DNA of 64,000 nucleotides from Candidatus Dojkabacteria bacterium HGW-Dojkabacteria-1 (lineage in GTDB: Bacteria > Patescibacteriota > Dojkabacteria > SC72), in NCBI GenBank assembly GCA_002840365.1, contig PHAO01000001.1:239242-303241 (forward strand). The letters run 5' to 3'. Shown here one piece after another: positions 43,473 to 60,637 of the stretch; the stretch's first letter is position 1; each line of letters begins with the position of its first letter. Position numbers and translations under genes: made by a program. The notes beneath the pieces were generated by a model. That model saw only the letters and a list, made by a program, of their open reading frames with translations, was not told the origin of the DNA and made no database searches.

Positions 43473-44054
43473 TTATTCAAAACTTTTAAAAATTTCTTTG
43501 TAAAAGGAAAATTTTGAAGAAACATTATTATTTAAAACCTCTAGAGTGTGCCCAAGCATCTGATAATTAACAGAGAGTATCGCATCCTCACTTAATAAAG
43601 GATAATCCTTCTTTAAGTTTGTCCAATCAAGAGATTCTGCATTTACATGGCTAAAACTATGAGTGATTTTTACTACCTTATTGTAGTATTCTTTTGAAAA
43701 TCCAACCTCTAACATTCTCTCCCCAAGGTTACTTTTTGTCCATCTCTTCCCGAATCCAAAATCATCTTTGGAGATATCTACGAGATATTCCTTTATTCTC
43801 GTTTCAAAATTTTTATTTAAAATCCATTTTAAATTTACGGTATTTTCTATTAAAGATCTTAGTAAGATGGCTGCTTCCTGAGTAAAATTCTTCTCACATA
43901 ATAAAAGAATTGCCCCAGTAATATGAAATGAATTATAAGAGAGGCTGTGGATTAAAATATTTTTAGGAGTTTTTTCATAATTTCTTCCGATTTCGTCGAA
44001 GACAGAGTCCGTTTTTTTAATAGTATCAACAATTACACTTCTATATTGTCTCAT
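43473..44054 (-). CDS. hypothetical protein immediately downstream of the Type IIG RM gene (overlapping stop/start)
   Basis: 193-aa ORF overlapping the RM gene end by 14 nt; no motifs. Confidence 0.45.
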   Translation of the reverse strand: MRQYRSVIVDTIKKTDSVFDEIGRNYEKTPKNILIHSLSYNSFHITGAILLLCEKNFTQEAAILLRSLIENTVNLKWILNKNFETRIKEYLVDISKDDFGFGKRWTKSNLGERMLEVGFSKEYYNKVVKITHSFSHVNAESLDWTNLKKDYPLLSEDAILSVNYQMLGHTLEVLNNNVSSKFSFYKEIFKSFE

Positions 44055-47000
44055 TTTTTATATTTTTATCAATTTCTTTCATAATCCTATCTGTTTTTTC
44101 TAGAATTACTATTATTTTTTGATAATGCTCTATGTCTATGTTAGTTAATTCTATTCCTCTTCTATCCTTTAACCATTTTTGTGCAGGCTGATAACCACCT
44201 ATATAGAAATTCCATGCAATTTCAGACACATTTCCAAAGTATTGGGTATCATTAATATAGACATTGCTGTTTTTGTATCTTATTTTTTCTACAACATCAG
44301 ATCCACTAATAGGATATGTAGTTATATATTTATTAATTTTTGATGATTCCATTAAATGTAATTCTCTTAGTTTTGTTCCTATCTTTACTAATTTCTTAAA
44401 AGATTCTTTGTCTTTAGGGTATGGTACTCTAGGAAAATCTATCTTTAAGAATTCTTTGTATTTCTCCCTATATTTAGGACTATGTAATACTGCATATATA
44501 TAATCAAAGATATCTTCTGGTGTAGTTTTACCAACTATTTCCTCTATTTTTTTCACTATTTCGGTATTCAAGTTTGGTGTTTTAGTACCATCGTCGGAAT
44601 AGAGGTAGAGTGGGAAGACATAGCTATTATCTAATGGGGAGCAAATAGCCTTATCAGTTATATCCTTTGTCACAAAGTAACAATGAAATGGGCTTCGGTC
44701 TCTTTTTGTGCTATTTAGAACGAAATTAGGCTTTTCGAGAATATGTTTCATAACTGCATGTCGAGGATTGAAAACAATGTTCTTATGATAATAAATAAAT
44801 CTGTTATCAAAAATCCTGTAAGAGTATGTCTTAATCAAATCTTCCCTATATGTTTTTCCTCCTTTTCTTGTGTCAGATAATTTCCAAAGAGCGTTGTCTT
44901 GGAGTGAATATTTTGATTTAATTTCTTCATCTGTTAGGTTAGGATCATAGAAGTCTTTAATCTTTTTCTCTAAGTTATTTTTGTTTGTATTTACAGCATA
45001 ATTGTCCTTTGCGGTAGTAATACCCATACTGTGAACTTTAAAAAATTCTTGCAATGAAATTCCTCTGTTATATTCATTTATATTTTCATAATTTTTTTCC
45101 TCAAAGAAGTAGTAAGGTTCTTGATACTTTATTTGTAGAAAAGGAGTAGATCCAATTTTGAGTGAATTTAACTCTCTTAATTTCTTTTCTCTAGTTCCCC
45201 AGATATCATATCTAAATATTTTTCCTAATTCATTAGATTTTTTCTTGTTTGTTTTTATACCAATAAATATTGCTACTCCAGGTTGAATATCAAAAACATT
45301 TTCATCTTTACTTCCATCTGGACTAATATCTTTTGTCTTTGTATTTCCATGCAAATCTATTATGTAGATTTTGTCAAAGGTTTTAAGTAAACTCCATCTC
45401 ATACCCCTAAAGGTGGGATTTTCTAAGTAACCATGGTTTGTTATGAAGGCAACAATTCCAGAATTATTCTTTTCAATGAAATTCTCTGCTAAGCCAAAAA
45501 ATTTTACATAATCATCATTTAGCCAATGTTTTTTTTCTTTTAATTTCTCATCTCCTCCTGGCTCAACTTTGTATTTATTAATTATACTCTTCGCATAAGG
45601 AGTTTCGTTTGAGGAAACTCCGCTATAAGGAGGATTTCCTATTACCACCATAACGGAAGTGTTTCTCTTAATCTTTTCTGCTTCCTTAGATTCTTCGGTA
45701 ATACTTTCTGCAAAACCAAAAGAAAATAGACCTTCTTGTTTAATCCCTTGTTCTAAGGCATTTGTTAAATAAATACCTAATCTTTTATTAAAATGTATAA
45801 AGCCAGTCTTTTTAAATGCAATACTTAGCTTAAGGTGAGCTATGGTATATGGAGCCATCATTAATTCAAAAGCATGAATACGAGGTAAAAGATCATGATG
45901 AACATATGAAGGCCACCGGCCTTTTTGACCAGAATCTAAAATATTTTTATAAATGAGGTTTATAACTGCACTAATAAAAGTCCCTGTTCCAGTGGCAGGA
46001 TCCAATACTTGAACAGTATGTTTTCCATCTGCAGATTTTGAAGTATCTGCTAAACCATTGTGAAGATTAAAATCTTTTTTGAGAATGGTATCTACTGAAG
46101 TCACGATGAAATTCACAACGGGGAGGGGTGTATAGTATGCCCCCATTCTTTTTCTTAAAGCAGGATCATACTCTTGAAGGAAGTCTTCGTAAAAATGTAT
46201 CACAGGATCTTTACCATCTTTTTTTTCAAAGTATTCCTCAAGTAGATTTTTTACATCAGCATGAGAGAAAATTTGGCAAAGTTCATCTACAATATATTCC
46301 AATCTTTTATCGAAATTAGGTCCTGCTATATGATCGAAAAAATGCATTAGTAAGGGATTGGATTGGGGTACTAAATCTCTTGCTTCCTGCCTTGTAAAAC
46401 GATCTTGAGATTCATCGTTATATCTTGCTGCGAATAAGCCGTAGACCAATGTCTGGGCATACATATCCGCAAAAGATTCTACAGTTAGATCGCTTACTAA
46501 AAGTTTCTTAATCATTTCATAGACTCTCGCAATTTCTGTTCCTTCTTTTAAGAATTCTTTAACATTATCTCTTATTCTTTGTGCTTTCCCCGCCATTATT
46601 TTTGAGAGGTGAGCTCCCGATTTAATTGGTTCTTTGTATGATTTTGAGAAATCAACGAGCGTCTTTTCTAAAAGGACATAGTTATCGGGGATAGAAGATA
46701 TTGTTTTTGTTTTTTTATCGACATTTCCAATTTTAATAGGTTCCTGATATAAAAGACCATTTCTGTAAAAGCGAAATTCTAGATAATCAGTTAATACAAG
46801 ATTTGCATATCCATAGTACCTAGCCATTTGCTCAGATTTTTCTATCTTGTCTAAAGATACTCCTAAATCCTTTGTTTCCATGTATAAGATAGGGATTTCC
46901 CCATTAAAAATAACAAAGTCTGGTTTATTTTTATCCTCGGTTTTAGCCTCTTGCCTTATTTTTCTTACTTCAATTCGATTAAAAATTTCCTGTAGTAGAT

Positions 47001-47094
47001 TCTGTATTGGTGTTCTATATGAATACTCTGTTCCTTTTTCACTTTTGTATATTTCAGATATGGAAGAAAGATATTTTTCGAAGGTTTGTTGCAT
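44041..47094 (-). CDS. Type IIG/IIL-like restriction-modification enzyme: N-terminal PD-(D/E)xK nuclease fused to a gamma-class N6-adenine DNA methyltransferase and a C-terminal target-recognition region
   Basis: KPDFVIF-x11-ETKD (PD ... ExK); motif I VLDPATGTGTF; motif IV VIGNPPYSG; 1017 aa; AT-rich relative to flanks. Confidence 0.8.
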   Translation of the reverse strand: MQQTFEKYLSSISEIYKSEKGTEYSYRTPIQNLLQEIFNRIEVRKIRQEAKTEDKNKPDFVIFNGEIPILYMETKDLGVSLDKIEKSEQMARYYGYANLVLTDYLEFRFYRNGLLYQEPIKIGNVDKKTKTISSIPDNYVLLEKTLVDFSKSYKEPIKSGAHLSKIMAGKAQRIRDNVKEFLKEGTEIARVYEMIKKLLVSDLTVESFADMYAQTLVYGLFAARYNDESQDRFTRQEARDLVPQSNPLLMHFFDHIAGPNFDKRLEYIVDELCQIFSHADVKNLLEEYFEKKDGKDPVIHFYEDFLQEYDPALRKRMGAYYTPLPVVNFIVTSVDTILKKDFNLHNGLADTSKSADGKHTVQVLDPATGTGTFISAVINLIYKNILDSGQKGRWPSYVHHDLLPRIHAFELMMAPYTIAHLKLSIAFKKTGFIHFNKRLGIYLTNALEQGIKQEGLFSFGFAESITEESKEAEKIKRNTSVMVVIGNPPYSGVSSNETPYAKSIINKYKVEPGGDEKLKEKKHWLNDDYVKFFGLAENFIEKNNSGIVAFITNHGYLENPTFRGMRWSLLKTFDKIYIIDLHGNTKTKDISPDGSKDENVFDIQPGVAIFIGIKTNKKKSNELGKIFRYDIWGTREKKLRELNSLKIGSTPFLQIKYQEPYYFFEEKNYENINEYNRGISLQEFFKVHSMGITTAKDNYAVNTNKNNLEKKIKDFYDPNLTDEEIKSKYSLQDNALWKLSDTRKGGKTYREDLIKTYSYRIFDNRFIYYHKNIVFNPRHAVMKHILEKPNFVLNSTKRDRSPFHCYFVTKDITDKAICSPLDNSYVFPLYLYSDDGTKTPNLNTEIVKKIEEIVGKTTPEDIFDYIYAVLHSPKYREKYKEFLKIDFPRVPYPKDKESFKKLVKIGTKLRELHLMESSKINKYITTYPISGSDVVEKIRYKNSNVYINDTQYFGNVSEIAWNFYIGGYQPAQKWLKDRRGIELTNIDIEHYQKIIVILEKTDRIMKEIDKNIKNETI

Positions 47095-49612: not shown

Positions 49613-50704
49613 ATGAAAAGATTTAGATTAACTAACAATAACTGGGACGAAGCAATTAAAGAAGCAGTAAAGGTACTAAATGAAGGTGGGCTTGTAGTAT
49701 ATCCTACAGAAACCTGTTATGGTATTGCTGTAGATGCTACTAATGAGAGAGCATTAAGTAAGCTTCTCTCATACAAAACATTCAGAGGTTCCAAACCTAT
49801 CTCAGTAGCTGTAGCTAATAGAGAGATGGCAGAAAGGTATGTAGAAATAAATGAAATGGCAGAAAATATATACAAGAACTACTTACCAGGACCAATAACT
49901 GTGGTATCAATGAGTAAAGGAGTTCTTAAACCACCAGTTGTTTCTAAGCAAGATTCTACCGGTATTAGAATACCAGATTACAAATTTACACTTAAGTTGA
50001 TTGAATCTTTTGGAAGACCAATTACTGCGACCTCTGCAAATGTATCTTACAAACCACATCCATACAGTATTGATCAATTGATAAAGGATTTACCTAAGAA
50101 AAGTGAATCCCTTATTGATCTATTCTTAGATGATGGAGAACTACCAAAAAATGTACCATCTACAATATTAGATACCACTATGAATACTCTTACTGTACTA
50201 AGGGAAGGAAAGCTAAAATTTGAAGATGCAATTTTACAAAGTACTCTTTTGGAAGAGAAAATAACTAAGAAACCTGAACATACAAGTGATATGGGAGAGT
50301 CCTTTACTAAGGAATACCTAAAGGATTTAGAAGGTAGTGTTGTAATTGCATTAAGTGGAGAGCTAGGTGCTGGTAAAACTCAATTCACAAAAGGTATTGG
50401 AGTAGGACTTGGGGTAGAAGAGCTAGTTAATTCACCTACATATACAATCATAAATGAGTATGAATATGGTAGTAAGGTATTAGCACATATGGACACATGG
50501 AGACTCATGGATGAGGATGATTTAAACAGGTCTGGACTAATTGAGCATTTGGAGAAGGGTAACATTGTAGTAATAGAGTGGGCAGACAAATTCTACCAAG
50601 AGCTGGAAGGGATATGTCGCCAAAAAAACATCCCTATGTACAAAGTAACATTTAAATATATTTCACTTAAAGAAAGAGAGATAAAGATATATGGTACTAA
50701 CTAA
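49613..50704 (+). CDS. fusion of TsaC/Sua5 (YrdC domain, threonylcarbamoyl-AMP synthase) with the TsaE (YjeE) P-loop ATPase
   Basis: N-terminal VVYPTETCYGIAVDATNERA (YrdC); C-terminal ALSGELGAGKTQFTKGI (TsaE Walker A). Confidence 0.75.
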   Translation: MKRFRLTNNNWDEAIKEAVKVLNEGGLVVYPTETCYGIAVDATNERALSKLLSYKTFRGSKPISVAVANREMAERYVEINEMAENIYKNYLPGPITVVSMSKGVLKPPVVSKQDSTGIRIPDYKFTLKLIESFGRPITATSANVSYKPHPYSIDQLIKDLPKKSESLIDLFLDDGELPKNVPSTILDTTMNTLTVLREGKLKFEDAILQSTLLEEKITKKPEHTSDMGESFTKEYLKDLEGSVVIALSGELGAGKTQFTKGIGVGLGVEELVNSPTYTIINEYEYGSKVLAHMDTWRLMDEDDLNRSGLIEHLEKGNIVVIEWADKFYQELEGICRQKNIPMYKVTFKYISLKEREIKIYGTN

Positions 50705-51779
50705 GGAAATATTAAAAGAGAAACCATTAATACTTGCAATAGATACAAGTTGCGATGATACCTCTGTTGCACTACTTAGAGGGAGAGAGGTATTAAATAG
50801 TGAGCTTTCATCTCAGATAGAGTTACATTCTGAATTTGGGGGTGTAGTTCCTGATTTAGCAAGGAGATTACATGAGGAGAATATTGAAGAGGTTTACAAC
50901 AAAGCATTAAACAACAATCCAGGGATGATAAATAATGTGGATTACATAGCTGTAACAACTGGTCCTGGATTAGCCATAGACTTAGAAGTAGGTCTTAAGT
51001 TCGCAAAGGATTTGGCAGATAGGTATAACAAGCCTTTTGTTCCTGTTAATCATATGGAAGGGCATCTTTTTTCATCTTTACTTCTTAATTCAAAAGGTAA
51101 TGGGTTAGTAAGTGATGAGGAATTAGTAGATGCATTTCCTGCAATTGCCCTCCTTATGTCCGGAAAGCATACCGAGATAGTGTATGTAGAGAGTATTGGG
51201 GAGTACAAGAAGCTTGGTCAAACATTAGATGATGCAGCAGGAGAGGCGTTTGATAAAGTGGGTAGAGTTTTAAACTTAGGATATCCTGGTGGTCCTGTTG
51301 TAACAGAGTTTGCAAAGAGAGGAAAAAGTGGAGTAATTAAGTTTACTACTCCAATGAAGAACTCTGGAGATTTAAACTTCAGCTATTCAGGTCTTAAAAC
51401 TGCAGCATTGTACAAGTCAAAAGAATTAAGAGAAAAGGGTATTCCTGAGAGAGAATGGATATATGATTTCTGTAGAGGATTTTTAGATGCTGTAGTTGAT
51501 TCTGTAGTTATTAAATTGCAGTTAGCTATAGAGAAACATCCAGAGGTAAAAACTGTATTTGTAGGAGGAGGAGTGTTTAATAGTGAAGAGATACTTAGAA
51601 AGGTTGGTAATACTGTTAGGTCTTACAATCTTAATTACTACTTTCCAGAGATAGAGTACAGAAGTGATAACGCAGCTATGATTGGTGTTAGTGCATATTT
51701 AAATATACTTCAGGGGAAGTATATTACAGACAAAGATGAGATAGAGGAGATTGATAGAGATCCTAGACTTTCACTTTGA
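50691..51779 (+). CDS. tsaD: tRNA N6-adenosine threonylcarbamoyltransferase TsaD (Kae1/Gcp family)
   Basis: LAIDTSCDDTSVAL N-terminal motif and PVNHMEGHLF metal-binding motif. Confidence 0.85.
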   Translation: MVLTKEILKEKPLILAIDTSCDDTSVALLRGREVLNSELSSQIELHSEFGGVVPDLARRLHEENIEEVYNKALNNNPGMINNVDYIAVTTGPGLAIDLEVGLKFAKDLADRYNKPFVPVNHMEGHLFSSLLLNSKGNGLVSDEELVDAFPAIALLMSGKHTEIVYVESIGEYKKLGQTLDDAAGEAFDKVGRVLNLGYPGGPVVTEFAKRGKSGVIKFTTPMKNSGDLNFSYSGLKTAALYKSKELREKGIPEREWIYDFCRGFLDAVVDSVVIKLQLAIEKHPEVKTVFVGGGVFNSEEILRKVGNTVRSYNLNYYFPEIEYRSDNAAMIGVSAYLNILQGKYITDKDEIEEIDRDPRLSL

Positions 51780-51823
51780 CATTTTCAGAAGTAATAGAGT
51801 ATAATCCGAAGTCTTTTTTAAGG

Positions 51824-51896
51824 GCGCTGGTGGGGAAGTTGGTATCCCGTTGGATTTTAAATCCAAAGCTCGAAGGTTCAAGTCCTTCCCAGCGCG
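51824..51896 (+). tRNA. canonical 73-nt tRNA cloverleaf with anticodon TTA (reads UAA/UAG); suppressor-type tRNA with Gln-like features (discriminator G73, UUUUAAA loop)
   Basis: Acceptor GCGCTGG/CCAGCGC, D-arm GGGA-AGTTGGTA-TCCC, anticodon stem TTGGA/TCCAA with loop TTTTAAA, variable AGCTC, T-arm GAAGG-TTCAAGT-CCTTC; all arm lengths canonical. Confidence 0.55.
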
Positions 51897-51903
51897 CCTT
51901 AAG

Positions 51904-51961
51904 CAGTAGGGGTACATAGAGTGAGGTTTTCCTCCTTGTCCTCCTCAGTACCTCTACTGCT
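51904..51961. terminator. 13-bp stem hairpin (GCAGTAGGGGTAC ... GTACCTCTACTGC, one G-U pair, 32-nt loop) between the suppressor-type tRNA and the convergent eno gene
   Basis: Inverted repeat read from the sequence; the loop is long for a classical intrinsic terminator. Confidence 0.35.
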
Positions 51962-51963
51962 TT

Positions 51964-53241
51964 CTATTTCCCAAGACTGTTTTCAATGATTAGGAGTCTA
52001 TTGTATTTTGCTAACCGTTCGCCTCTATCTGGACCTCCAAATTTGGATTGTTGAGCTGGTGTACCTACAACTAGGTCTGCAATAAAGTCATCATTAGTTT
52101 CTCCACCTCTGTGTGATATTACTGCATTCATTCCGTTGTCTACGGTCATCTTTATAGCTTCCAATGTTTCTGTTACTGTTCCAATTTGATTTAGTTTAAT
52201 TAGAACGGCATTAATTGCTTTTTCTTGTATACCCTTTTGAATAAGTTTGGTATTTGTAACAAGTAAATCATCTCCAACAACTTGAAGTTTGCTTCCTAAC
52301 TCTTGTGTGAGTGTAGTCCAGCTTTCCCAGCTATCTTGCTCAAACATATCCTCTGTTGAATATATTGGATACTGTGAATACCATTCCTTTTGTATCTCAT
52401 ACCACTCCTGTGGTGAAAGAGATTTGTTTTCTTTCTTTAAATCATATTTTCCACTTTCTTTGTTGAAGAACTCCGATGCTGCAAAGTCTAGTGCTATTTC
52501 AAACTGCTCTCCTGGTTTGTATCCTGCTCTTTTAATACCTTCCAAAATAATATCTAATGATTCTTTGTTACCACTTAGTTCTTTAGGTATGTATGCCCCC
52601 TCAAATCCTACACCTACAGAGTATCCTTTCTCATCTAATACATCGTGAAGTGCATGGAATATTTCGCTCCCTGCTCTAAGTTGTTCTTTGAAGTTAGGAA
52701 AGACACCTTCCTTTGGAACTACCATGTACTCCTGTATATCTGTAGACCAATTACCATGTTTTCCACCTTCCATTACAAGTATTTGAGGTCTTGGTAGTTT
52801 AAATTTTTCTACTGAGTACTCTTTCTCCCAATATATCATTCCAATATATTCATACAGCTCTATACCAACTCTTTTTGCTACTGCTTTGCAAAATGCCATA
52901 GAGCAAGACAGTATTGAATTGCCTCCTAGTTTAGATTTATTCTCTGTTCCATCTAATTCTCTAAGAAAATCATCAAACTGTTTTTGTGATTCAAACTCTT
53001 TGTCTATGACTGCATTCTTTATAGTTGTGTTTACAATCTCTACTGCTTTAAGTACACCTTTACCATTGTATCTAGCCTTATCTCCATCTCTTAGTTCAAG
53101 TACTTCATTTACTCCAGTTGAAGCTCCACTTGGTACTTCTCCTCTTGCTTTATCTCCACTCCATAGCTCTATTTCTGTTGATATTGTTGGTATTCCTCTA
53201 GAGTCTAATATTTCTATTGCGTGTACATTCTTTATTTTCAT
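51964..53241 (-). CDS. eno: enolase (phosphopyruvate hydratase)
   Basis: Full-length match to the enolase pattern (IEILDSRG ... SHRSGETED-like HRGGETNDDFIADL ... ). Confidence 0.95.
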   Translation of the reverse strand: MKIKNVHAIEILDSRGIPTISTEIELWSGDKARGEVPSGASTGVNEVLELRDGDKARYNGKGVLKAVEIVNTTIKNAVIDKEFESQKQFDDFLRELDGTENKSKLGGNSILSCSMAFCKAVAKRVGIELYEYIGMIYWEKEYSVEKFKLPRPQILVMEGGKHGNWSTDIQEYMVVPKEGVFPNFKEQLRAGSEIFHALHDVLDEKGYSVGVGFEGAYIPKELSGNKESLDIILEGIKRAGYKPGEQFEIALDFAASEFFNKESGKYDLKKENKSLSPQEWYEIQKEWYSQYPIYSTEDMFEQDSWESWTTLTQELGSKLQVVGDDLLVTNTKLIQKGIQEKAINAVLIKLNQIGTVTETLEAIKMTVDNGMNAVISHRGGETNDDFIADLVVGTPAQQSKFGGPDRGERLAKYNRLLIIENSLGK

Positions 53242-53359
53242 TTCATTTCTCTTAGCAATTTATTACTTGATTGTTGCACAAAGTAGTTTAGTAGGCAAGA
53301 AAAACCCATAGTAGGTGTTTAGATGGTATAATACGGGACTAAAATATTATGATTTCTAA

Positions 53360-53851
53360 ATGGGAGACAAAAAAGATTTACCAGCATTGATAAAGGAATG
53401 GTTTGAGCCAGATACATCTCCTACAGAAGAGATTGTGGTTGAGGTACAAGATGTAATCTTGGAAGAATTAGAGTATGAGAGTGTAAGTCAGGATGTATCG
53501 GAAGAATTACAAATGGTTGGAATAGATTCGGTAGTAGAGGAGACGGTTGGGAACGATCCTTCTGCTTTAGATTTTCTTAAGGAGAAATTTCCTTCTCTTT
53601 TGGGTAATTGTAATTCTTGGAAAGATGTATTTAAGGAGGCAGCTAGAATATCTAGAGAGGTACACAAAGAATACTTCTTTATACAGGTATTCGCATCAGG
53701 CGTCATCCTAACATATATGGCTACAAATCCATTCCTTAAATCTTTAGGTCCTGTATTAGCATCTGTGGGTTACAGAAACAGTAGTGTAATACAAAGGGGA
53801 GTATCAGAAGAGGATGTTAGAAAAGTTCTTGGAGGTAGTTCTAAAAAGTAG
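53360..53851 (+). CDS. hypothetical protein
   Basis: 163-aa ORF, acidic N-terminal half. Confidence 0.35.
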   Translation: MGDKKDLPALIKEWFEPDTSPTEEIVVEVQDVILEELEYESVSQDVSEELQMVGIDSVVEETVGNDPSALDFLKEKFPSLLGNCNSWKDVFKEAARISREVHKEYFFIQVFASGVILTYMATNPFLKSLGPVLASVGYRNSSVIQRGVSEEDVRKVLGGSSKK

Positions 53852-53878
53852 AAGAATTTGTTAGAATATCGACATCAA

Positions 53879-53964
53879 GCCGAGGTGGTGGAATTGGCAG
53901 ACACGCTACCTTGAGGTGGTAGTGGGAGTAAAATCCTGTGCAGGTTCAAGTCCTGTTCTCGGCA
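53879..53964 (+). tRNA. tRNA-Leu (anticodon GAG), long variable arm
   Basis: GCCGAGGTGGTGGAATTGGCAGACACGCTACCTTGAGGTGGTAG ... GGTTCAAGTCC ... TCTCGGCA; nearly identical 5' half to E. coli tRNA-Leu(GAG). Confidence 0.9.
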
Positions 53965-53995
53965 GAGTATTTATGGTGTATAATACACACGTTTA

Positions 53996-54072
53996 GGGCG
54001 ATTAGCTCAGCTGGCTAGAGCATCTCGTTTACACCGAGAGGGTCGTAGGTTCGAATCCTACATCGCCCACCA
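53996..54072 (+). tRNA. tRNA-Val (anticodon TAC), CCA encoded
   Basis: GGGCGAT-TA-GCTCAGCTGGCTAGAGC-A-TCTCG-TTTACAC-CGAGA ... GTAGGTTCGAATCCTAC-ATCGCCC-ACCA. Confidence 0.9.
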
Positions 54073-54226
54073 TTCCATAGGGTGTTATTTTGTTTAACTC
54101 ATCTCTCAATATTCCTGCTTATATTACATCGAGTAGTAAAATTTCCTCAGTTACTGAAATATTTCTTGTTAATGACAACTATAAGTTATATAATCCAATA
54201 TCTCAAACCGAAAGGAGGTGAGGTAA

Positions 54227-54322
54227 ATGTTTGCAGTGAAGTATTTCACTCAGGTCGAGTCAACTGATGCTAACGCAACTAGCACAGTAGACAAATCGAG
54301 CGGGCAGACTGACTTCGATTAG
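54227..54322 (+). CDS. unannotated 31-aa peptide MFAVKYFTQVESTDANATSTVDKSSGQTDFD; candidate graspetide (microviridin-like RiPP) precursor
   Basis: RBS AAAGGAGG 9 nt upstream; leader FAVKYF resembles the microviridin PFFARFL recognition motif; core rich in Thr/Ser donors and Asp/Glu/Lys acceptors; 104 nt upstream of an ATP-grasp gene; GC-rich. Confidence 0.55.
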   Translation: MFAVKYFTQVESTDANATSTVDKSSGQTDFD

Positions 54323-54426
54323 TCGTCACCGGCAAGCAAGAAGGGGATGTGGAGATCCACAATGCATTATTATGGCCGACACCTCTCTACATCCCCCTAG
54401 CTCTTTCAAGCATTTAAGGAGAAATC

Positions 54427-55362
54427 ATGAGCGCAATACTAGTAGTAACCACATTGCCAGACCCCCACGTAGAAATGGTAAAAAAGCATCTCAGTTCTGA
54501 TGCGAATGTAGTCATATTTGATCCAAAGACTCTGGCGTTGTCCGGTGGCTTTACGCTTTCAGACGCAGGGCTTTTATCCACTCTTGATGGGGTTAATCCG
54601 ACCTCAATTTGGTATCGGAAGCCAAAGTATGTTTCTGATGCTGAGCTAGAGAAAATGGGAATCCCGAAAGATTTAATCTCTGCAATTTCATCTCTACATG
54701 AGGAGGGATTCTCACTAATTAGCGAGGCATATCCTGAAAGTCTTTGGGTATCAAAACCAACTGCAATCAAAAGTGCTTCAAACAAGCTTTTGCAAACTTT
54801 GATTGCAAAGAAGATTGGATTCCGTGTTCCGGAGACAATCTTTTCGACGGATCCGGTGGCAATAGAGGGCTTACGAAGCAGGGTGGGAGACATTGTGATT
54901 AAGCCATTGGGAAGGCCGTTTGCAACTGTAAATGGTATACCTTCCTGGTTTTTTGCTACTGTTATCCCTTCCTCTCAGACAATGGATTATGAAGGTCTAG
55001 GGTTAACTCCTATGATTTTTCAGCAGTTAATCCATAAGCTGTTTGACTTAAGAGTAACTATCATCGGTAACAAGATATTTGGATGTAAAATAGTTTCAGA
55101 TCAAGTTGATTGGCGAACTGTACAGTCAAAACCTGATACTCTATATACACCCTTCGAACTTGATAGAAATATCATCGAGAAATGTTTACTCATGAATCAG
55201 CAACTTGGTCTGAACTTCGGGGCCTACGACTTCGCTTATTCCAAGGAGGGGGAATATGTTTTTTTAGAGATAAATCCTAACGGACAGTGGGGATTTGTTG
55301 AAGACAAAACGGGATTACCCTTATCCAAGACAATGGCGGAATTACTGACCGGTTCTCTTTAA
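54427..55362 (+). CDS. ATP-grasp ligase, candidate graspetide (omega-ester/amide) macrocyclase
   Basis: 311 aa, the size of RiPP ATP-grasp maturases; EYVFLEINPNGQWGF ATP-grasp C-terminal motif; GC-rich relative to the host; RBS AAGGAG. Confidence 0.65.
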   Translation: MSAILVVTTLPDPHVEMVKKHLSSDANVVIFDPKTLALSGGFTLSDAGLLSTLDGVNPTSIWYRKPKYVSDAELEKMGIPKDLISAISSLHEEGFSLISEAYPESLWVSKPTAIKSASNKLLQTLIAKKIGFRVPETIFSTDPVAIEGLRSRVGDIVIKPLGRPFATVNGIPSWFFATVIPSSQTMDYEGLGLTPMIFQQLIHKLFDLRVTIIGNKIFGCKIVSDQVDWRTVQSKPDTLYTPFELDRNIIEKCLLMNQQLGLNFGAYDFAYSKEGEYVFLEINPNGQWGFVEDKTGLPLSKTMAELLTGSL

Positions 55363-55364
55363 AT

Positions 55365-55949
55365 GTGCTGGGGGAAAGCTTTTGGTATAATACTCCAATG
55401 AAACAAAGCTATCCCCCAGTCACAACTGCGACGAAAAAAATCGCAAAAAGATTAATTGAAATGGCAAAGCAAGACCAATTGGTTCGCGATAAATATTTAT
55501 CAAAAAGTGGAAAAAAATATTTAGATCAGATGTCGAAGGTTGATGAAATGAATAGAAAAGAGTTTAAAAGAATTTTCAAACAAACAGGGTTAATTACTTC
55601 TGAATATGGTGAAGAAGCTCAAATGGCGGCCTTTTTAATTGTTCAACATATGCCAAGAGAAGAAGTTGAATTGATGAAAGAATATCTTTCATTAATGAGA
55701 AAGAATATGACGGGTTACCCTCCAAATATATATGCAATGTTAACCGATAGAGTAAGAAATTGGGAAGGAAAGAAACAGTTGTATGGAACTCAATTTGTAT
55801 CGGTAGAAGGAAAAGAGAATATATACAAAATGAAGGATATATATAAACCGAAAGAGGTAGATAAAAGAAGGCTTGAGATAGGTTTGGAACCTTTAGAAGT
55901 GTATATGGATAATCTAGCGAAAGAGAAGGGGGTAACTTTAATTTCTTAA
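55365..55949 (+). CDS. hypothetical protein directly downstream of the ATP-grasp gene (3-nt gap); possible accessory of the peptide locus
   Basis: 194-aa ORF; composition closer to the host than the two upstream genes. Confidence 0.4.
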   Translation: MLGESFWYNTPMKQSYPPVTTATKKIAKRLIEMAKQDQLVRDKYLSKSGKKYLDQMSKVDEMNRKEFKRIFKQTGLITSEYGEEAQMAAFLIVQHMPREEVELMKEYLSLMRKNMTGYPPNIYAMLTDRVRNWEGKKQLYGTQFVSVEGKENIYKMKDIYKPKEVDKRRLEIGLEPLEVYMDNLAKEKGVTLIS

Positions 55950-56030
55950 GCAAGTAATTTCTAAGGTATGTTTCTGATACAATTGTAGTTTTATTAATAC
56001 ATCCTACTATTTTAGTTTATACATTTCCCT

Positions 56031-56441
56031 ATGGCTGATATTAAAGATGACATTGAAAAAGGTGATGATTATATATGGGAATGGGCTGAACCAGGGCGTA
56101 TTGATGGTACTAGCCTCATTATCCTTAACGAAAATCTTGCAGCGGCAATGGGTATCGCGAATAGTGTTTTTCCAGTTCTAGAGGGTAAAGAATCTGAGAA
56201 TTTAAACAAATTTGTTCGTAAATTCTATCAAGAAAATATTTTAGAAATAGAGAATTTAGATTTACTTGTACAGAACCTTTTTCTTCTTCGATCTATTGAT
56301 TTACAAATGAGAGAGACAAAGGAATTGTTAAAAAGAGAAATAATGCTCAACTGTGCTCAGGTTGCTCTTACAGACATATTGCTATTAATAGCTGATAATC
56401 CAAGTCTTTTTGCTGAGATAGATAATAGAATGAAATATTAG
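56031..56441 (+). CDS. hypothetical protein
   Basis: 136-aa ORF. Confidence 0.35.
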   Translation: MADIKDDIEKGDDYIWEWAEPGRIDGTSLIILNENLAAAMGIANSVFPVLEGKESENLNKFVRKFYQENILEIENLDLLVQNLFLLRSIDLQMRETKELLKREIMLNCAQVALTDILLLIADNPSLFAEIDNRMKY

Positions 56442-56522
56442 TTTTGACTCATTTAGTATATCTGTGTATATTTTAATAATATCTGTCTTACCAGATAGTA
56501 TAAATTTATACATAGATAATAT

Positions 56523-57959
56523 ATGGATTCCAGTTTTACAAGTTTTCTTACCATTTCATATCAGGAATTAGAAAAATTAAATCTAAAGGCTAAGAAAAAA
56601 AGAAAGAATAGGGCATTAGTTAATGAAAAAGCTTTAGAAAAAGAGTATAGGGAATATTTAGAAAAAACAGAAAGTATAAAGGCAGTAACAGTAGCATTCT
56701 CAGATTTGGAAGGAAGGTTTCATATGCTTGACTATGACAAAAAATTTTTACTTGAATCAAGTAATAACTTAACATTTGATGGTTCTTCTGTTAGAGGGTT
56801 TAGTAGTGTAGATGAATCTGATTTAAGATTAAGATTAGATTGGGCCTCTTTTTACTGGTTACCTGCAGATATATTTGGAGCAGGAAAGGTGGCAATATTT
56901 GCAGATATCTGTACTAGAGAAGGAGAAATTCATTCTTCGGATTTCAGAGCAAGATTAAAAGTATTGCTAAAGGATCTTTACAAGAAGAAAATGGAAATAA
57001 ATGTAGGAAATGAATTAGAAGGGTTTCTTTTTGAAGGTGTTGATGCAGAGATGCACTTCAGAGAAAGTAAAGGTTTTAAATTGGTATCTTTGGGTGGTTA
57101 CTACCACTCTTTACCAAAAGACAAACTAAGACTCTTTATCGATTCTGTTGCAGAGGCACAAAGGGCTCTGGGTTTTGAGAATGAGAAAGATCATCCAGAG
57201 GTAGCTCCATCTCAGTTTGAGCTAAATTACAAGTATACAGATGCTATCAATGCAGCAGATCAGATTCAGCTTTACAAAATGATAGCAAGACAAATTGCTG
57301 AGAATATGGGATGTACAGCATGTTTTCTCCCTAAGCCTTTGACTAATATCAATGGTAGTGGAATGCATACCAATATTTCAATATTAAAGAATGGCAAGAA
57401 TTCCTTCTATACGAAAAATGGTATAGAGACCCTTTCTAAATTTGCAAAAGATTTCATAGATAGGGTATTGGCAAATGCAACAGATATTTGTTTAGTATTA
57501 AATTCAAGTGTTAATTCATACAGAAGGTTAGATCCTAATTTTGAAGCACCTAATCAGATTAAGTGTTCTGCTGTCGATAGATCTGCAATGATTAGAATAC
57601 CTACTGGGAATGAAAACTCTACTCGTATTGAAGTAAGATCTGTTGGTTCTGATACTAATCCATATCTTTTAACATATACCTTGTTGAAGATTGGGTTGGA
57701 AGGCCCTAAAACAGAGATAGACGAATCTAAGAGACAAAGAACTAGAGTATTGCCTGGTAATATCCATGATTCTCTTAGAATCTTTAAGGCAAGTGATTTA
57801 ATGACAGAAGTCCTTGGTGAAGATGCAAAAGAAAGATATGCAAATCTTAAAGAGAAGGTTGCAGACAGGGCTCACAAGGAATTAGGTAAGAGTATAAAGA
57901 AGTCTGAGGTTATATATCATCACGAAATAACTAATCAGTATCTTTGGAATCAGTTTTAA
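56523..57959 (+). CDS. glutamine synthetase-family protein (GlnA-like; gamma-glutamyl ligase)
   Basis: N-terminal beta-grasp FDGSSVRGF; ATP-binding KPLTNINGSGMHTNIS motif (KP..G.NGSG.H.N.S). Confidence 0.8.
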   Translation: MDSSFTSFLTISYQELEKLNLKAKKKRKNRALVNEKALEKEYREYLEKTESIKAVTVAFSDLEGRFHMLDYDKKFLLESSNNLTFDGSSVRGFSSVDESDLRLRLDWASFYWLPADIFGAGKVAIFADICTREGEIHSSDFRARLKVLLKDLYKKKMEINVGNELEGFLFEGVDAEMHFRESKGFKLVSLGGYYHSLPKDKLRLFIDSVAEAQRALGFENEKDHPEVAPSQFELNYKYTDAINAADQIQLYKMIARQIAENMGCTACFLPKPLTNINGSGMHTNISILKNGKNSFYTKNGIETLSKFAKDFIDRVLANATDICLVLNSSVNSYRRLDPNFEAPNQIKCSAVDRSAMIRIPTGNENSTRIEVRSVGSDTNPYLLTYTLLKIGLEGPKTEIDESKRQRTRVLPGNIHDSLRIFKASDLMTEVLGEDAKERYANLKEKVADRAHKELGKSIKKSEVIYHHEITNQYLWNQF

Positions 57960-58019
57960 ATTGATTAAAAATGTTTTCTGTAATATATTCTTAGGGTATA
58001 TAACCTGAGAGCTAAATAC

Positions 58020-58655
58020 ATGGAAACAAAAATAGACCTAGATAGGTATCGAAGTTACTATGAGAAATTTGATATAGGGCATGGATGGGGACATATTGAA
58101 TCTGTGAGAAATTTTGCACTAGAACTGGGTAAAAAATACTGTCCAGAGAAACTAGAATTACTTTGGGTTGCAGCAACACTACATGATATTGGTCTATCAG
58201 TCTCAAGAGAGAATCACGAAAACGATGGTGCAGATATGATATTAAAGGATGAAGAATTAAGAAAGTACTATACTCAAAAAGAGATTGAAGAGATAGCAAA
58301 TGCTGTAAGACAACATAGGGCATCATGTGGTAATCCTCAAACAGACTTTGAAAAGATAATTAGTGATGCAGATAAGGTATCTGATGATACAAATAGTGCA
58401 TTTCAAAGAGCATACTATTGGGGTAAGGAGAAGCTTCCTCAGGTAAACCATGAAGGACAACTACTAAGGGCTGCATATCATCTACATGAAAAATTCGGTA
58501 AGAGTGGTACAGGTAGAAGATTGTATTTCAAAGAGAGTATTGAGAAGATAGATTCTGTATATGACCCTATCTTCGAAGCATTAGAGAGTTATGACTTAAA
58601 GAAGTTAGAAAGTTTTTTAAAGTTGTTTGAAATTGATAAAGGTTTCTTTTTGTAA
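58020..58655 (+). CDS. HD-domain phosphohydrolase
   Basis: HGWGH ... ATLHDIG HD motif. Confidence 0.7.
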   Translation: METKIDLDRYRSYYEKFDIGHGWGHIESVRNFALELGKKYCPEKLELLWVAATLHDIGLSVSRENHENDGADMILKDEELRKYYTQKEIEEIANAVRQHRASCGNPQTDFEKIISDADKVSDDTNSAFQRAYYWGKEKLPQVNHEGQLLRAAYHLHEKFGKSGTGRRLYFKESIEKIDSVYDPIFEALESYDLKKLESFLKLFEIDKGFFL

Positions 58656-58689
58656 TATATTTAAATGGATAACATAAATCTTTTTAAGT

Positions 58690-58890
58690 ATGGATTTACT
58701 AAAATACATAATTGTGGGAGTAGGTTGTTTGTTTGTAAGTCTAATACTTTCTATCATGGTTAGGAACATACTCGCAGGTGTGGGCTTTGCAATTCTTTCC
58801 TTTGGGGGATACATACTTTGGAATTATTTTAATGCTGCTAAAAATGATCCTCCCAAAAGTCCTTTTGACAATACACCAACGGACAATTAG
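58690..58890 (+). CDS. small two-TM membrane protein; its stop codon overlaps the 5' end of tRNA-Val(CAC)
   Basis: 66 aa, two hydrophobic helices. Confidence 0.35.
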   Translation: MDLLKYIIVGVGCLFVSLILSIMVRNILAGVGFAILSFGGYILWNYFNAAKNDPPKSPFDNTPTDN

Positions 58891-58954
58891 CTCAGTTGGT
58901 TAGAGCACTACATTCACATTGTAGGGGTCAGTAGTTCGAGTCTACTATTGTCCA
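58881..58954 (+). tRNA. tRNA-Val (anticodon CAC)
   Basis: GGACAAT-TA-GCTCAGTTGGTTAGAGC-A-CTACA-TTCACAT-TGTAG ... GTAGTTCGAGTCTAC-ATTGTCC-A. Confidence 0.85.
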
Positions 58955-59424
58955 GTTTCTGGCTTTACTTTGCTTGTACAGAATGCACACTTAGTGGATT
59001 TTTTACTAATATCTGAAAAACAGTATGGACATTTCATTGTCTTTTTTTCTTCCTTTACCTGTTCTTTCTCTGTTGCTTTGTTAATAGCTCTAACAATGAA
59101 ATACAAAATTATTGCCGTTATAGTAAAGGTAATTAACGCATTTAATACTAATCCGTACTGAATTACTACTGCTTGTGCTTCTTGTGCTTGAGCAAGTGTA
59201 TCATATTGCTCTTTACCAAGGGTAAAAAACATTTCAGAAAAATCTAAATTTGCCGTTAAAAAACCAATTGGAGGTGTAAAGATATTCTTTACTAAAGCGT
59301 CAACTAAATCCTTAAATGCTACACCAATGATTACTCCAATTGCTAAAGTAATGGCGTTGTCTTTCATTGCAAATTTTTTAAACTCCTTTAATTCCTTTCT
59401 AATACCCTTAAGAATTCTTCCCAT
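58945..59424 (-). CDS. mscL: large-conductance mechanosensitive channel MscL with a C-terminal zinc-ribbon extension
   Basis: LKEFKKFAMKDNAITLAIGVIIGVAF ... IFTPPIGFL matches the MscL N-terminus; C-terminal CPYCFS ... CAFCTS CxxC-N12-CxxC. Confidence 0.85.
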   Translation of the reverse strand: MGRILKGIRKELKEFKKFAMKDNAITLAIGVIIGVAFKDLVDALVKNIFTPPIGFLTANLDFSEMFFTLGKEQYDTLAQAQEAQAVVIQYGLVLNALITFTITAIILYFIVRAINKATEKEQVKEEKKTMKCPYCFSDISKKSTKCAFCTSKVKPETGQ

Positions 59425-60637
59425 TTCTTTTTAAAATGTAAAAAATTAAAACCAACAATACAAAGAAGAAGAGTGATGCATATACTATAATTTGATTCAT
59501 AAAGGCATCTTTCAAGGAATCATTGTTAAATTGAAAGAGTGTATATTGCAATGCAACAAGTAAAACTAAGAAGAAGATATGTATATATGAGTCCTTTATC
59601 AGTAATGAATTAATTACCATATATGAGACTGCATATACTGTCATGGCGATTCCATATAGTGTAATATATGGCACTATTTCAGAGTACATTCCCTTGAATA
59701 CAATATCTACTATTTCTTTTGTAAACAGGAAATATACAGCAGAGATAGCGAGTCCTGTTAATGCAGAAATAGTTAGAGAGATGAGTAAGGTTTTCTTTCT
59801 GAATTGATCTTCTTCATTTGCTAACTTTGAAATCATTACACCAGCAATAGTAATTGATGCAAAGTAAACAATCTTTCCTACAAGTGATAGTGCTCCATAT
59901 GATGCTCTTACTTCAGGATTTACAAGTATTAAATCAAGTGTAAATGGTGCATTAAGAAGTAAGAATGTTATAAATAGGAGTACAACTGCTTTGTATTGAA
60001 TATTGATTTTCTCTGTAGAGAGTTTCATGCTTCCTGTTCTTACGAAAGGAAGTACAAAGATTAGTGTTAACATAGCAGGTATTACATTCGAAAGAATAGG
60101 GAGTGTAATATCTAAGCTATTTGATATTGCATAGTAGCCCATTACAAACTTAAGGATTGTCTCAACAACAAGAATTAAATTCAATGTAGCTATCTTTTCT
60201 AACCCAAGTAGAAAGCCCTTTGGAATTGGAGAAATAATTGCTCCAAAGAGAGCTAAGCTGAGTGGTAATATGTATTTGTCAGGTATATTTGCAAAAGCAG
60301 CTATTTGTTCTCCAAAGATTAAGAATAGTGCAGACAGTGTAACTGCAACAAGTCCTAATTGTAGTGTACTTCTAATCTTGAATTTTTCTAGATTAAAGTC
60401 TCTTTTTTGAGCAACCCTTTTAGTTATTGCAGTTTGTATTGCAATTGCAGGTATTTGTACTAGGTATATTATTCCCAAAGCGGCATTGTAAAGACCAAAG
60501 TCATTACTTTGGAGATTTCTAGCAAGGTAAATATTGAAAAGATAGTTAAGGAAATTTACAAAGACTCCTACGAGTATGGTGATTAATATATTTTTTAGAA
60601 AGGTATTTTCTCCATTAAAATATTTACTTAGTGTCAT
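59408..60637 (-). CDS. MOP-superfamily polysaccharide biosynthesis protein (Wzx-like flippase)
   Basis: 409 aa, about 12 predicted TM helices, N-terminal pattern typical of polysaccharide biosynthesis proteins. Confidence 0.6.
   Translation of the reverse strand: MTLSKYFNGENTFLKNILITILVGVFVNFLNYLFNIYLARNLQSNDFGLYNAALGIIYLVQIPAIAIQTAITKRVAQKRDFNLEKFKIRSTLQLGLVAVTLSALFLIFGEQIAAFANIPDKYILPLSLALFGAIISPIPKGFLLGLEKIATLNLILVVETILKFVMGYYAISNSLDITLPILSNVIPAMLTLIFVLPFVRTGSMKLSTEKINIQYKAVVLLFITFLLLNAPFTLDLILVNPEVRASYGALSLVGKIVYFASITIAGVMISKLANEEDQFRKKTLLISLTISALTGLAISAVYFLFTKEIVDIVFKGMYSEIVPYITLYGIAMTVYAVSYMVINSLLIKDSYIHIFFLVLLVALQYTLFQFNNDSLKDAFMNQIIVYASLFFFVLLVLIFYILKRNGKNS

Follow-up and report, generated by a model that had tools for sequence, protein, structure and literature searches.

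The window analysed here is a stretch of 64,000 nucleotides of Candidatus Dojkabacteria bacterium HGW-Dojkabacteria-1 (assembly GCA_002840365.1, contig PHAO01000001.1, positions 239,242 to 303,241), and the element in question is a set of three consecutive genes in it, encoding a 31-aa peptide, a 311-aa ATP-grasp ligase and a protein of the DUF6624 family (Table 1). From sequence and structure prediction it is very probable that the three genes form a cassette for a graspetide, an omega-ester-containing peptide of the ribosomally synthesised, post-translationally modified class (RiPP), with the 31-aa peptide as the precursor and the ligase as its macrocyclase; the product itself is a predicted one. 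At the sequence and model level the locus combines a ligase of the graspetide clade with complete domain architecture, an adjacent and co-conserved precursor, and Thr/Ser and Asp residues in the putative core. Systems of this kind have already been predicted in Candidate Phyla Radiation (CPR) bacteria, bioinformatically only, and the Dojkabacteria copy has an unusually small precursor with a minimal leader.

Table 1. Positions of the cassette features and flanking tRNA genes in the window, with precursor peptides of related loci
Feature	Positions	Strand	Sequence or detail	Basis
Predicted promoter, sigma-70-like	54166..54194	+	TTGTTA-17-TATAAT	10/12 consensus matches
Ribosome-binding site of precursor	54213..54223	+	AGGAGGTGAGG	GAAAGGAGGTGAG invariant in 6/6 aligned loci
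Putative graspetide precursor gene	54227..54322	+	31 aa, MFAVKYFTQVESTDANATSTVDKSSGQTDFD	Conserved open reading frame, ATG 54227 to TAG 54322
Hairpin between precursor and ligase	54343..54396	+	13-bp stem, GGGGAUGUGGAGA / UCUCUACAUCCCC	Minimum-free-energy fold
Pairing with ligase Shine-Dalgarno sequence	54401..54421	+	CUCUUU (54401-54406) / AAGGAG (54416-54421)	RNAalifold, 6/6 loci
Graspetide synthetase	54427..55362	+	311 aa, ATP-grasp macrocyclase of MdnB/MdnC/CdnC/PsnB/PruB type	Profile and predicted fold
DUF6624 (PF20329) protein	55398..55949	+	183 aa from ATG 55398 or 194 aa from GTG 55365	Pfam, 1.8e-17
tRNA-Leu(GAG)	53879-53964		Upstream of cassette	ARAGORN and Rfam
tRNA-Val(TAC)	53996-54072		Upstream of cassette	ARAGORN and Rfam
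Precursor variant, L001 and L081			MFAVKYFTQIESTDANATSTVDTSSGQTDFD	
Precursor variant, L002			MFAVNFFTRIESADAKGTGTVDKSTGQTDFD	
Precursor variant, L003			MFAVKYFTEMDSTGPESTSTVGDESGQTDFD	
Precursor variant, L004			MFAVNFFTMMDSTGPGSTSTVGNESGQTDFD	
Precursor variant, L009, L083 and L087			MFAVKYFTEMDSTGPESTSTVGNESGQTDFD	
Precursor variant, L162 and L163			MFAINFFVVMESTGPESTSTVGNDSGQTDFD	
Precursor variant, L164 and L165			MFAVNFFTPVESCCMSSTSSTDNDSGQTDFD	
Example precursor, ligase 30-38% identical			MKSKRKPVKVVPFGAKYLKKVAMANKRSSSNTNTGTGTSQPDADHD	
Example precursor, ligase 30-38% identical			MNTNNQQVVPFGVSFMQPMPVLDASAMGLTRTHTHTGMGDSGQDSETDSD	
Precursor of L076			MKKQPFGVQFAETPEMVSSADCGDSTQFITGKDWDFDSD	

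The ligase groups with graspetide macrocyclases

The 311-aa protein shares 100% identity with a hypothetical protein from Candidatus Dojkabacteria bacterium HGW-Dojkabacteria-1 and had no significant match in Pfam. Its best matches in NCBIfam were all ATP-grasp maturases of ribosomal peptides (TIGR04187, 1.9e-52; MvdC, 2.3e-42; MvdD, 2.4e-36; grasp-with-spasm, 8e-20), while RimK reached 2.9e-12 and glutathione synthase (GshB) 4e-4. The alignment to TIGR04187 covers the full length, with ligase residues 3-308 on profile positions 1-312, and together with the PDB profile matches this shows that the three-domain architecture, including the N-terminal pre-ATP-grasp domain, is present. As a single sequence the ligase matched MdnB, AMdnB, MdnC, 9BOU, CdnC and PsnB in the PDB. 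A profile built from 24 homologues matched the same proteins over their full length (AMdnB, 6.8e-58; MdnB, 1.1e-56; CdnC, 2.7e-56; MdnC, 5.7e-56; 9BOU, 6e-46; PsnB, 1e-24), and matched RimK at 8e-9 over positions 112-316 only, which is the C-terminal part.

The predicted fold agrees with the profiles. The AlphaFold2 (AF2) model of the ligase has a mean per-residue confidence (pLDDT) of 93.1 and a predicted template modelling score (pTM) of 0.89, and in a Foldseek search of this model against the PDB the first 32 chains were all graspetide macrocyclases. Template modelling (TM) scores were 0.85 to CdnC, up to 0.85 to MdnC, 0.80 to AMdnB, 0.80 to PsnB and 0.74 to PruB (9BOU), against 0.60-0.67 to RimK, ArgX and LysX. 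The initial annotation had read the protein as a 311-aa ATP-grasp maturase and had named a grouping with RimK, GshB or D-Ala-D-Ala ligase (Ddl) as the result that would speak against this; by NCBIfam, PDB profile and fold searches alike it groups with the RiPP maturases, with a full-length match to MdnB/MdnC/CdnC-type ligases. In the homologue alignment K159 (in IVIKPL), R209, and E281 and N283 of an E-x-N motif (FLEINPN) do not vary, and at least 90% of the homologues keep D268; judging from ATP-grasp enzymes in general, we take these residues to bind ATP and Mg.

The 31-aa peptide is conserved beside the ligase

The precursor gene is a 31-codon open reading frame (ORF) with a strong ribosome-binding site, as had been noticed from the sequence at the outset: GGAGG at 54214-54218 stands 8 nt from the ATG. 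An in-frame TAA lies directly 5' of this ATG, so the ORF is not extendable. An ORF of this kind is on its own not beyond chance, with 90 ORFs of at least 25 aa overlapping the AT-rich 10 kb around it, and it is taken as real because of the ribosome-binding site and because its frame, length and sequence are conserved in other genomes. Its distance of 104 nt to the ligase start (ATG 54427) is as first measured. The initial annotation had called the ORF unannotated, which is not universally so, since the exact 31-aa peptide is a called gene on 4 public contigs.

Conservation was followed through 166 ligase loci, of which 160 came from searching metagenomes and the genomes of species representatives with the ligase alignment and 6 more via individual ligase homologues, and the peptide diversity described below is that found in these loci. 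An ORF of exactly 31 codons lies upstream of every intact ligase that is 53-89% identical to that of the window, behind the same AGGAGGTGAG site, and length and frame are the same in L001-L004, L009, L081, L083, L087 and L162-L165. The small ORF is therefore conserved beside the ligase in related genomes, a point on which the initial annotation had made its proposal depend. Both ends of the peptide are near-invariant (MFA[VI]..F and GQTDFD). In the first six variants M1, F2, A3, V4, F7, T8, S12, T18, T20, V21, G26, Q27, T28, D29, F30 and D31 are all invariant; V4, T8, T20 and V21 change in the variants of L162-L165, with Ser at 20 and Thr at 21 in L164 and L165. The peptide is under purifying selection, with a ratio of nonsynonymous to synonymous changes (pN/pS, Nei-Gojobori) of 0.13-0.69, and neither of the other two frames is open in any locus. 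Within the invariant GQTDFD end the codons change synonymously (GGG/GGT/GGA, CAG/CAA, ACT/ACA, TTC/TTT, GAT/GAC).

The peptide is furthermore homologous to a wider family of CPR precursors, which have a PFGxxF/L leader and a Thr-rich core that ends in DxD. A bridging form of 36 aa (MIPFGVDDLVVVAGSDATATSTTQDNGQTDFDFDDD) stands in L166 beside a 42%-identical ligase, keeping GQTDFD and having a PFG leader. Ligases that are 30-38% identical (from WWE3, Microgenomates, Paceibacterota, Saccharibacteria and unassigned CPR contigs) are preceded by peptides of 39-86 aa, except that the peptide of L076 is downstream. When the window peptide is aligned jointly with the PFG-leader precursors of 41-50 aa from WWE3, Microgenomates and other CPR bacteria, M-F-A-V-K-Y-F stands opposite P-F-G-A-K-Y-L, F2, T28 and D31 are invariant, and all sequences have a similar spacing between the motif and the Thr-rich block. 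MFAVKYF thus aligns with the PFG[AV]xx[FLM] of related precursors, and this alignment with PFGAKYL-type leaders supports the early suggestion that FAVKYF is the leader helix. The Dojkabacteria peptide looks like a member of this family that lacks the whole N-terminal extension and has its initiator Met at the position of the conserved Pro.

The 41-50-aa ORFs of L010-L015, L088, L091, L093, L097 and L100 lie directly upstream of 31-38%-identical ligases (WWE3, Microgenomates and other CPR); their leader is (V/I)xPFG[AV]xx[LMF], their C-terminus is rich in Thr and Asp, and in the catalogues as far as these could be checked they are not listed. In the Paceibacterota locus L076 the PFG-leader precursor (5006-5125) sits between the ligase and DUF6624, so that the order of genes within the cassette is not fixed.

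Within the window peptide the leader would comprise roughly residues 1-10, with MFAVKYF as the recognition motif, and the core roughly residues 17-31, with T18, T20, T28, D29 and D31. Judged by conservation, the nucleophiles would be the T18/T20 cluster (positions 18-21 across all variants) and the acyl donors D29 and D31, which would give two rings; the hydroxyls of T8, S12 and T28 and the C-terminal carboxylate may also take part. The core had been described at first as rich in Thr and Ser together with Asp, Glu and Lys. The conserved Thr and Asp residues bear this out, but Lys23 varies among the precursor variants (as do Asp14 and Asp22), and an omega-amide link via Lys23 is therefore unsupported and was rejected.

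Relation to characterised and predicted graspetide systems

The microviridin system MdnA/MdnB/MdnC (PDB 5IG8, 5IG9) shares the ligase fold and domain order with the window cassette (TM 0.78-0.85, about 24% identity), and its leader PFFARFL has an F..F/L pattern in common with MFAVKYF. Its Thr/Ser-to-Asp/Glu ester chemistry is also what is predicted for the window ligase. Microviridin differs in having two ligases, one for esters and then one for amides, a GNAT acetyltransferase and a TxKYPSDWEEY core with a Lys amide, whereas the window cassette has one ligase, no conserved Lys, another core without KYPSD, and DUF6624 instead. The ligase scores (145 against 425 bits for MvdC, 125 against 475 bits for MvdD) also place it outside the microviridin family, graspetide group 1. 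In the systems of CdnC (7MGV), PsnB (7DRM) and PruB (9BOU) a short core receives several ester rings from a single ATP-grasp enzyme. The predicted fold of the window ligase resembles these enzymes with TM 0.74-0.85 at 18-26% identity, and the TxT...DxD layout could give hairpin rings like those of plesiocin. The differences are that these systems have longer precursors, often with repeated cores, and transporters or other partners, not DUF6624. MdnC, CdnC and PsnB bind the leader helix and phosphorylate Asp/Glu side chains, and Thr/Ser hydroxyls then close the ester rings; by analogy, the window ligase should follow the same chemistry.

The initial annotation knew of no such cluster in CPR-like bacteria. 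This is outdated, since CPR graspetide clusters and the DUF6624 partner were described bioinformatically in 2022 (PMC8939145) and 2026 (PMC13097080). Makarova et al. (2022) reported graspetide clusters in CPR, placed in Branches 1 and 2 of their ATP-grasp tree, each with an uncharacterised "cluster 23" protein; most Branch 2 loci had no assigned precursor, and small ORFs were possibly missed (PMC8939145). In their Table S1, Branch_2 includes a 126-aa ligase fragment of WS6 GW2011_GWF2_39_15 with no precursor (PMC8939145). This entry is our locus L005, whose ligase fragment and DUF6624 share 75% and 71% identity, respectively, with their window counterparts; the window cassette accordingly falls into Branch 2, in the same CPR host group and ligase clade. 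"Cluster 23" appears to be DUF6624, judging from the shared loci and an N-terminal DQxxR motif.

The window cassette follows the same leader and core logic as these CPR clusters. The published leader signature is Phhx(1,2)h, which is present in about 50% of known precursors and is not strictly defining, and the published core signature is TxxxTx(6-10)Dx(1-4)D (PMC8939145), which the TxT-x8-DxD layout of the window peptide resembles. Unlike the Branch 2 loci of that study, the precursor is identified here, with 31 aa and with Met in place of the motif Pro. It is likely that the short PFG-leader ORFs are the "missing" precursors of Branch 2 loci with 316-aa ligases; precursors of 31-50 aa would explain why loci were left without a substrate by earlier surveys.

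Carter et al. (2026) extended RODEO to 43 graspetide groups (PMC13097080). Their group 42 comprises 22 biosynthetic gene clusters, largely from candidate phyla, with a synthetase, a precursor and, in 82%, DUF6624, which they flagged as a possible undiscovered class of biosynthetic enzyme (PMC13097080). The Komeilibacteria representative of the group has a precursor of 48 aa (MKKNSTPKPLILDRLRQPIEDIYKGGEKAMEGFTTHGTPNDPDSGGTD) with a PLILDRL-type leader and a GG site (PMC13097080). This peptide ends in ...TTHGTPNDPDSGGTD, which resembles the ...TSTVDKSSGQTDFD of the window peptide, and has no alignable similarity to it outside the C-terminal few residues. The window cassette shares the CPR origin and the co-occurrence of DUF6624 with group 42, the group itself being defined by a synthetase network at an alignment score of 70. 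In the searchable parts of the supplementary text, GQTDFD, MFAVKYF and PFGAKYL were not found for PMC8939145, and neither a Dojkabacteria entry nor a matching peptide motif was found for PMC13097080. To that extent the Dojkabacteria precursor family, its minimal leader and the short PFG-leader CPR precursors were not found in either study.

DUF6624 as the third member of the cassette

The initial annotation had placed a 194-aa gene 3 nt after the ligase. The gene is present and encodes DUF6624, but from GTG 55365 the gap is 2 nt, and from ATG 55398 it is 35 nt; since many close homologues start at the equivalent of the latter (183 aa), the start is ambiguous. Of the 166 loci, 40 have a DUF6624 gene no more than 260 nt from the ligase (tblastn and profile search), among them every Dojkabacteria and WWE3 locus, and it was absent in 89 loci with enough flanking DNA, mostly from Saccharibacteria, Actinobacteria and Chloroflexi. 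Q83, H84, D117, R118, Q127, Y129, Q132 and R158 are invariant in the alignment, and the CPR copies have no N-terminal hydrophobic segment or signal peptide. Outside CPR, many homologues begin with a signal or lipoprotein-like N-terminus and some have an N-terminal PDZ domain fused to DUF6624 (e.g. P0149, P0150, P0162), a hint that their role in the cell envelope may be related to peptides or C-termini. The AF2 model (pLDDT 93.6) is mostly helical with a small sheet, and the PDB gave no informative fold match for it.

Given its tight synteny, cytoplasmic location and invariant polar residues, DUF6624 is most likely a partner or tailoring protein, with immunity or peptide handling as a serious alternative. 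A cassette that makes a graspetide but in which DUF6624 is non-biosynthetic (with a function in immunity, target mimicry or peptide handling, or simply as a conserved neighbour) is indeed quite possible, if somewhat doubtful. Similarly related ligases of Saccharibacteria and Actinobacteria do without it (among the 89 loci with room for the gene), its homologues outside CPR are secreted lipoproteins or PDZ fusions, the gene is convergent in L166 and separated from the ligase by a hairpin in L004, L009 and L162, and it survives without an intact ligase in L005. In favour of a biosynthetic role, the gene is adjacent, at no more than 260 nt, in every Dojkabacteria and WWE3 locus, the invariant Q, H, D, R and Y suggest a catalytic or ligand-binding pocket, and the lack of a signal peptide in CPR puts the protein in the same compartment as the ligase and the peptide.

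Neither ATG 55398 nor GTG 55365 is preceded by a Shine-Dalgarno sequence. An extended -10-like element (TGGTATAAT, 55383-55400 of the window) ends 6 nt before ATG 55398; L001 shares it (TGGTATAAT), as do L002 and L005 (TGGTAGAAT), while L004, L009 and L162 have a hairpin (GCTGGGAGGTAA...TTACYTCCCAGC) in the spacer between ligase and DUF6624 instead. DUF6624 may therefore have a separate leaderless transcript.

Apparent mobility of the cassette and decayed copies

The GC content of the precursor and ligase is 41-44% with a skew near zero, against 30-37% and a positive skew in the surrounding genes (53900-55400 compared with flanks in 50000-60000); that of the DUF6624 gene is 32-36%. tRNA-Leu and tRNA-Val directly precede the cassette in the window and in L001, tRNA-Gly precedes it in L004, and in L162 it is flanked by dnaX and ybaB-recR. 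The GC contrast, the varying context and the decayed copies in relatives together suggest a mobile or horizontally moved cassette.

In L005:3087-5014 (WS6/Dojkabacteria GW2011_GWF2_39_15, LBWK01000001.1) the cassette has decayed. The C-terminal 126 aa of the ligase are left, 75% identical to window residues 171-311, and DUF6624 is intact; there is no precursor ORF, and an unrelated 239-aa gene on the opposite strand stands in place of the precursor and the 5' half of the ligase. Two ORFs of 212 aa and 126 aa take the place of a single ligase gene in L009:3863-4899 and L087:2501-3399 (with a shortened match of 893 nt), beside an intact 31-aa precursor and DUF6624; a frameshift, a deletion or an assembly error may be the reason.

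It is improbable that the window copy is itself such a case, a cassette of genuine origin which has become a non-functional or decaying remnant after horizontal acquisition. The losses in L005 and the split ligases of L009 and L087 would fit it, as would the GC contrast and the differing context, but in the window all three ORFs, the promoter, both ribosome-binding sites and the hairpin are intact, and the close relative L001 (ligase 83% identical) has the same arrangement, with a peptide pN/pS of 0.13.

Predicted expression signals between the genes

The predicted promoter upstream of the precursor keeps its -10 TATAAT in four of five related Dojkabacteria loci (TAAAAT in L004), and the TTG of its -35 is kept in the related loci except L004, which has TTGAC there. 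Between the precursor and the ligase lies a hairpin (54343-54355 paired with 54384-54396), and a 13-15-bp stem is found at the same place in 6/6 loci. Since the stem sequence differs between two subgroups (GGAGAUACAG...CUGUAUCUCC in the other), the hairpin is conserved as structure and not as sequence. Compared with shuffled sequences, five loci give z-scores of -3.1 to -5.1 and the window gives -1.6; the hairpin had no Rfam match. RNAalifold on the MAFFT alignment missed this large hairpin, the subgroups being misaligned, and it was taken from single-sequence folds. It is probably a partial terminator or a stabiliser of the mRNA that sets the ratio of precursor to enzyme.

The shorter CUCUUU/AAGGAG helix is near-invariant, with one G-C to G-U change, so that there is no compensatory covariation by which to test the pairing. 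Masking of the Shine-Dalgarno sequence by this helix is a possible, weakly evidenced means of damping translation of the ligase. In many RiPP and bacteriocin operons the precursor is expressed above the enzyme, and by analogy the hairpin and the helix would do the same here.

The strong, conserved hairpin, the possible masking helix and the shortness of the ORF could also be read as signs of a regulatory leader peptide, an upstream ORF that controls the ligase by attenuation via the hairpin, with some other molecule as the substrate of the ligase. We consider this very improbable. It is the amino-acid sequence of the peptide that is conserved (pN/pS below 1, and synonymous codon changes within GQTDFD), and the peptide is homologous to 36-50-aa precursors with a graspetide-typical leader and a Thr/Asp core; the homologous peptide gene of L076 is downstream of the ligase, which is incompatible with attenuation; and the hairpin lies 20 nt past the stop codon, with no alternative anti-terminator seen. 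Least credible of all is that the enzyme is a RimK/GshB/LysX/Ddl-type ligase of primary metabolism or protein glutamylation with the small ORF beside it by coincidence, for although relatives are publicly annotated as "RimK protein" or "glutathione synthase/RimK-type ligase" and homologues have weak PF08443 matches, RimK-family scores are 40-50 orders of magnitude weaker and confined to the C-terminal ATP-grasp part, TM scores are 0.80-0.85 to graspetide ligases against 0.6-0.67 to RimK, LysX and ArgX, and the small ORF co-varies with the ligase across genomes.

A model for the cassette

We propose that transcription from the dedicated promoter would yield chiefly the 31-aa precursor, while the hairpin, and possibly the helix that masks the ligase Shine-Dalgarno sequence, would pass less expression on to the ligase and DUF6624. 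MFAVKYF at the N-terminus of the peptide would be bound by the ligase, as the counterpart of the microviridin PFFARFL and of the CPR PFGxxF/L leader helix, with the initiator Met standing where the leader helix usually has Pro. The ATP-dependent ligase would turn the side-chain carboxylates of the invariant Asp29 and Asp31 into acyl phosphates, and the Thr/Ser hydroxyls of the conserved T18-x-T20 cluster would attack these, most likely to give two macrolactone rings (TxT-x8-DxD), nested or parallel. The co-inherited cytoplasmic DUF6624 protein would then serve the peptide or the ligase as a partner or tailoring factor.

Several observations weigh against a graspetide cassette of this kind. The ligase scores below every curated NCBIfam cut-off and therefore belongs to no named equivalog; this includes TIGR04187 (GRASP_SAV_5884), which is still the best model, at 178.4 against 350 bits, and there is no PIMT-type methyltransferase nearby. 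The hydroxyl positions of the core are not strictly fixed across variants (TSTV, TSST, TATSTT), and the leader has Met1 where the Phhx(1,2)h motif has Pro. To our knowledge the leader is also far shorter than that of any characterised graspetide, and we know of no CPR graspetide that has been characterised, so that the cross-links and positions given here are deduced. Neither a peptidase nor a PCAT/ABC exporter or C39 peptidase was found among the cassette neighbours and the 10 of 13 window ORFs of at least 400 aa that were scanned. The truncated ligase of L005 and the split ligases of L009 and L087 show that the cassette is dispensable, and from equally similar Saccharibacteria ligases without DUF6624 it follows that some enzymes of the type can do without this protein.

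Few natural-product genes are recognised in the tiny genomes of CPR bacteria, and a widely retained cassette for peptide cyclisation is therefore a rare handle on their interactions with hosts or rivals. The locus is a very small and easily synthesised test case, with a 31-aa peptide, one ligase and one DUF protein, and is suited to establishing the ring pattern, the role of DUF6624 and the minimal leader needed, the last of which would be useful for the engineering of peptide cyclisation. It is conceivable, if rather unlikely as a whole, that the cassette holds the smallest natural graspetide precursor, with a leader that is the bare recognition helix from Met1 and needs no removal, that DUF6624 is a new class of partner or tailoring protein (for ligase activity or further modification), that the product, a compact cross-linked peptide, is used by these episymbiotic bacteria on hosts or competitors (e.g. 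as a protease inhibitor), and that the PFG-leader peptides are the missing Branch 2 precursors.

Other features of the window

A scan of 53800-56100 against Rfam gave the two tRNAs of Table 1 and nothing else. The 163-aa gene upstream (53360-53851) and the 136-aa gene downstream (56031-56441) were considered as members of the cassette and rejected, as they are not conserved with it. Elsewhere in the window, a 2203-aa ORF (21642-28253, minus strand) and the adjacent 672-aa ORF (19622-21640, minus strand) had no Pfam match, and positions 44041-47094 on the minus strand encode a Type ISP restriction-modification enzyme (Type_ISP_C, 2e-83).

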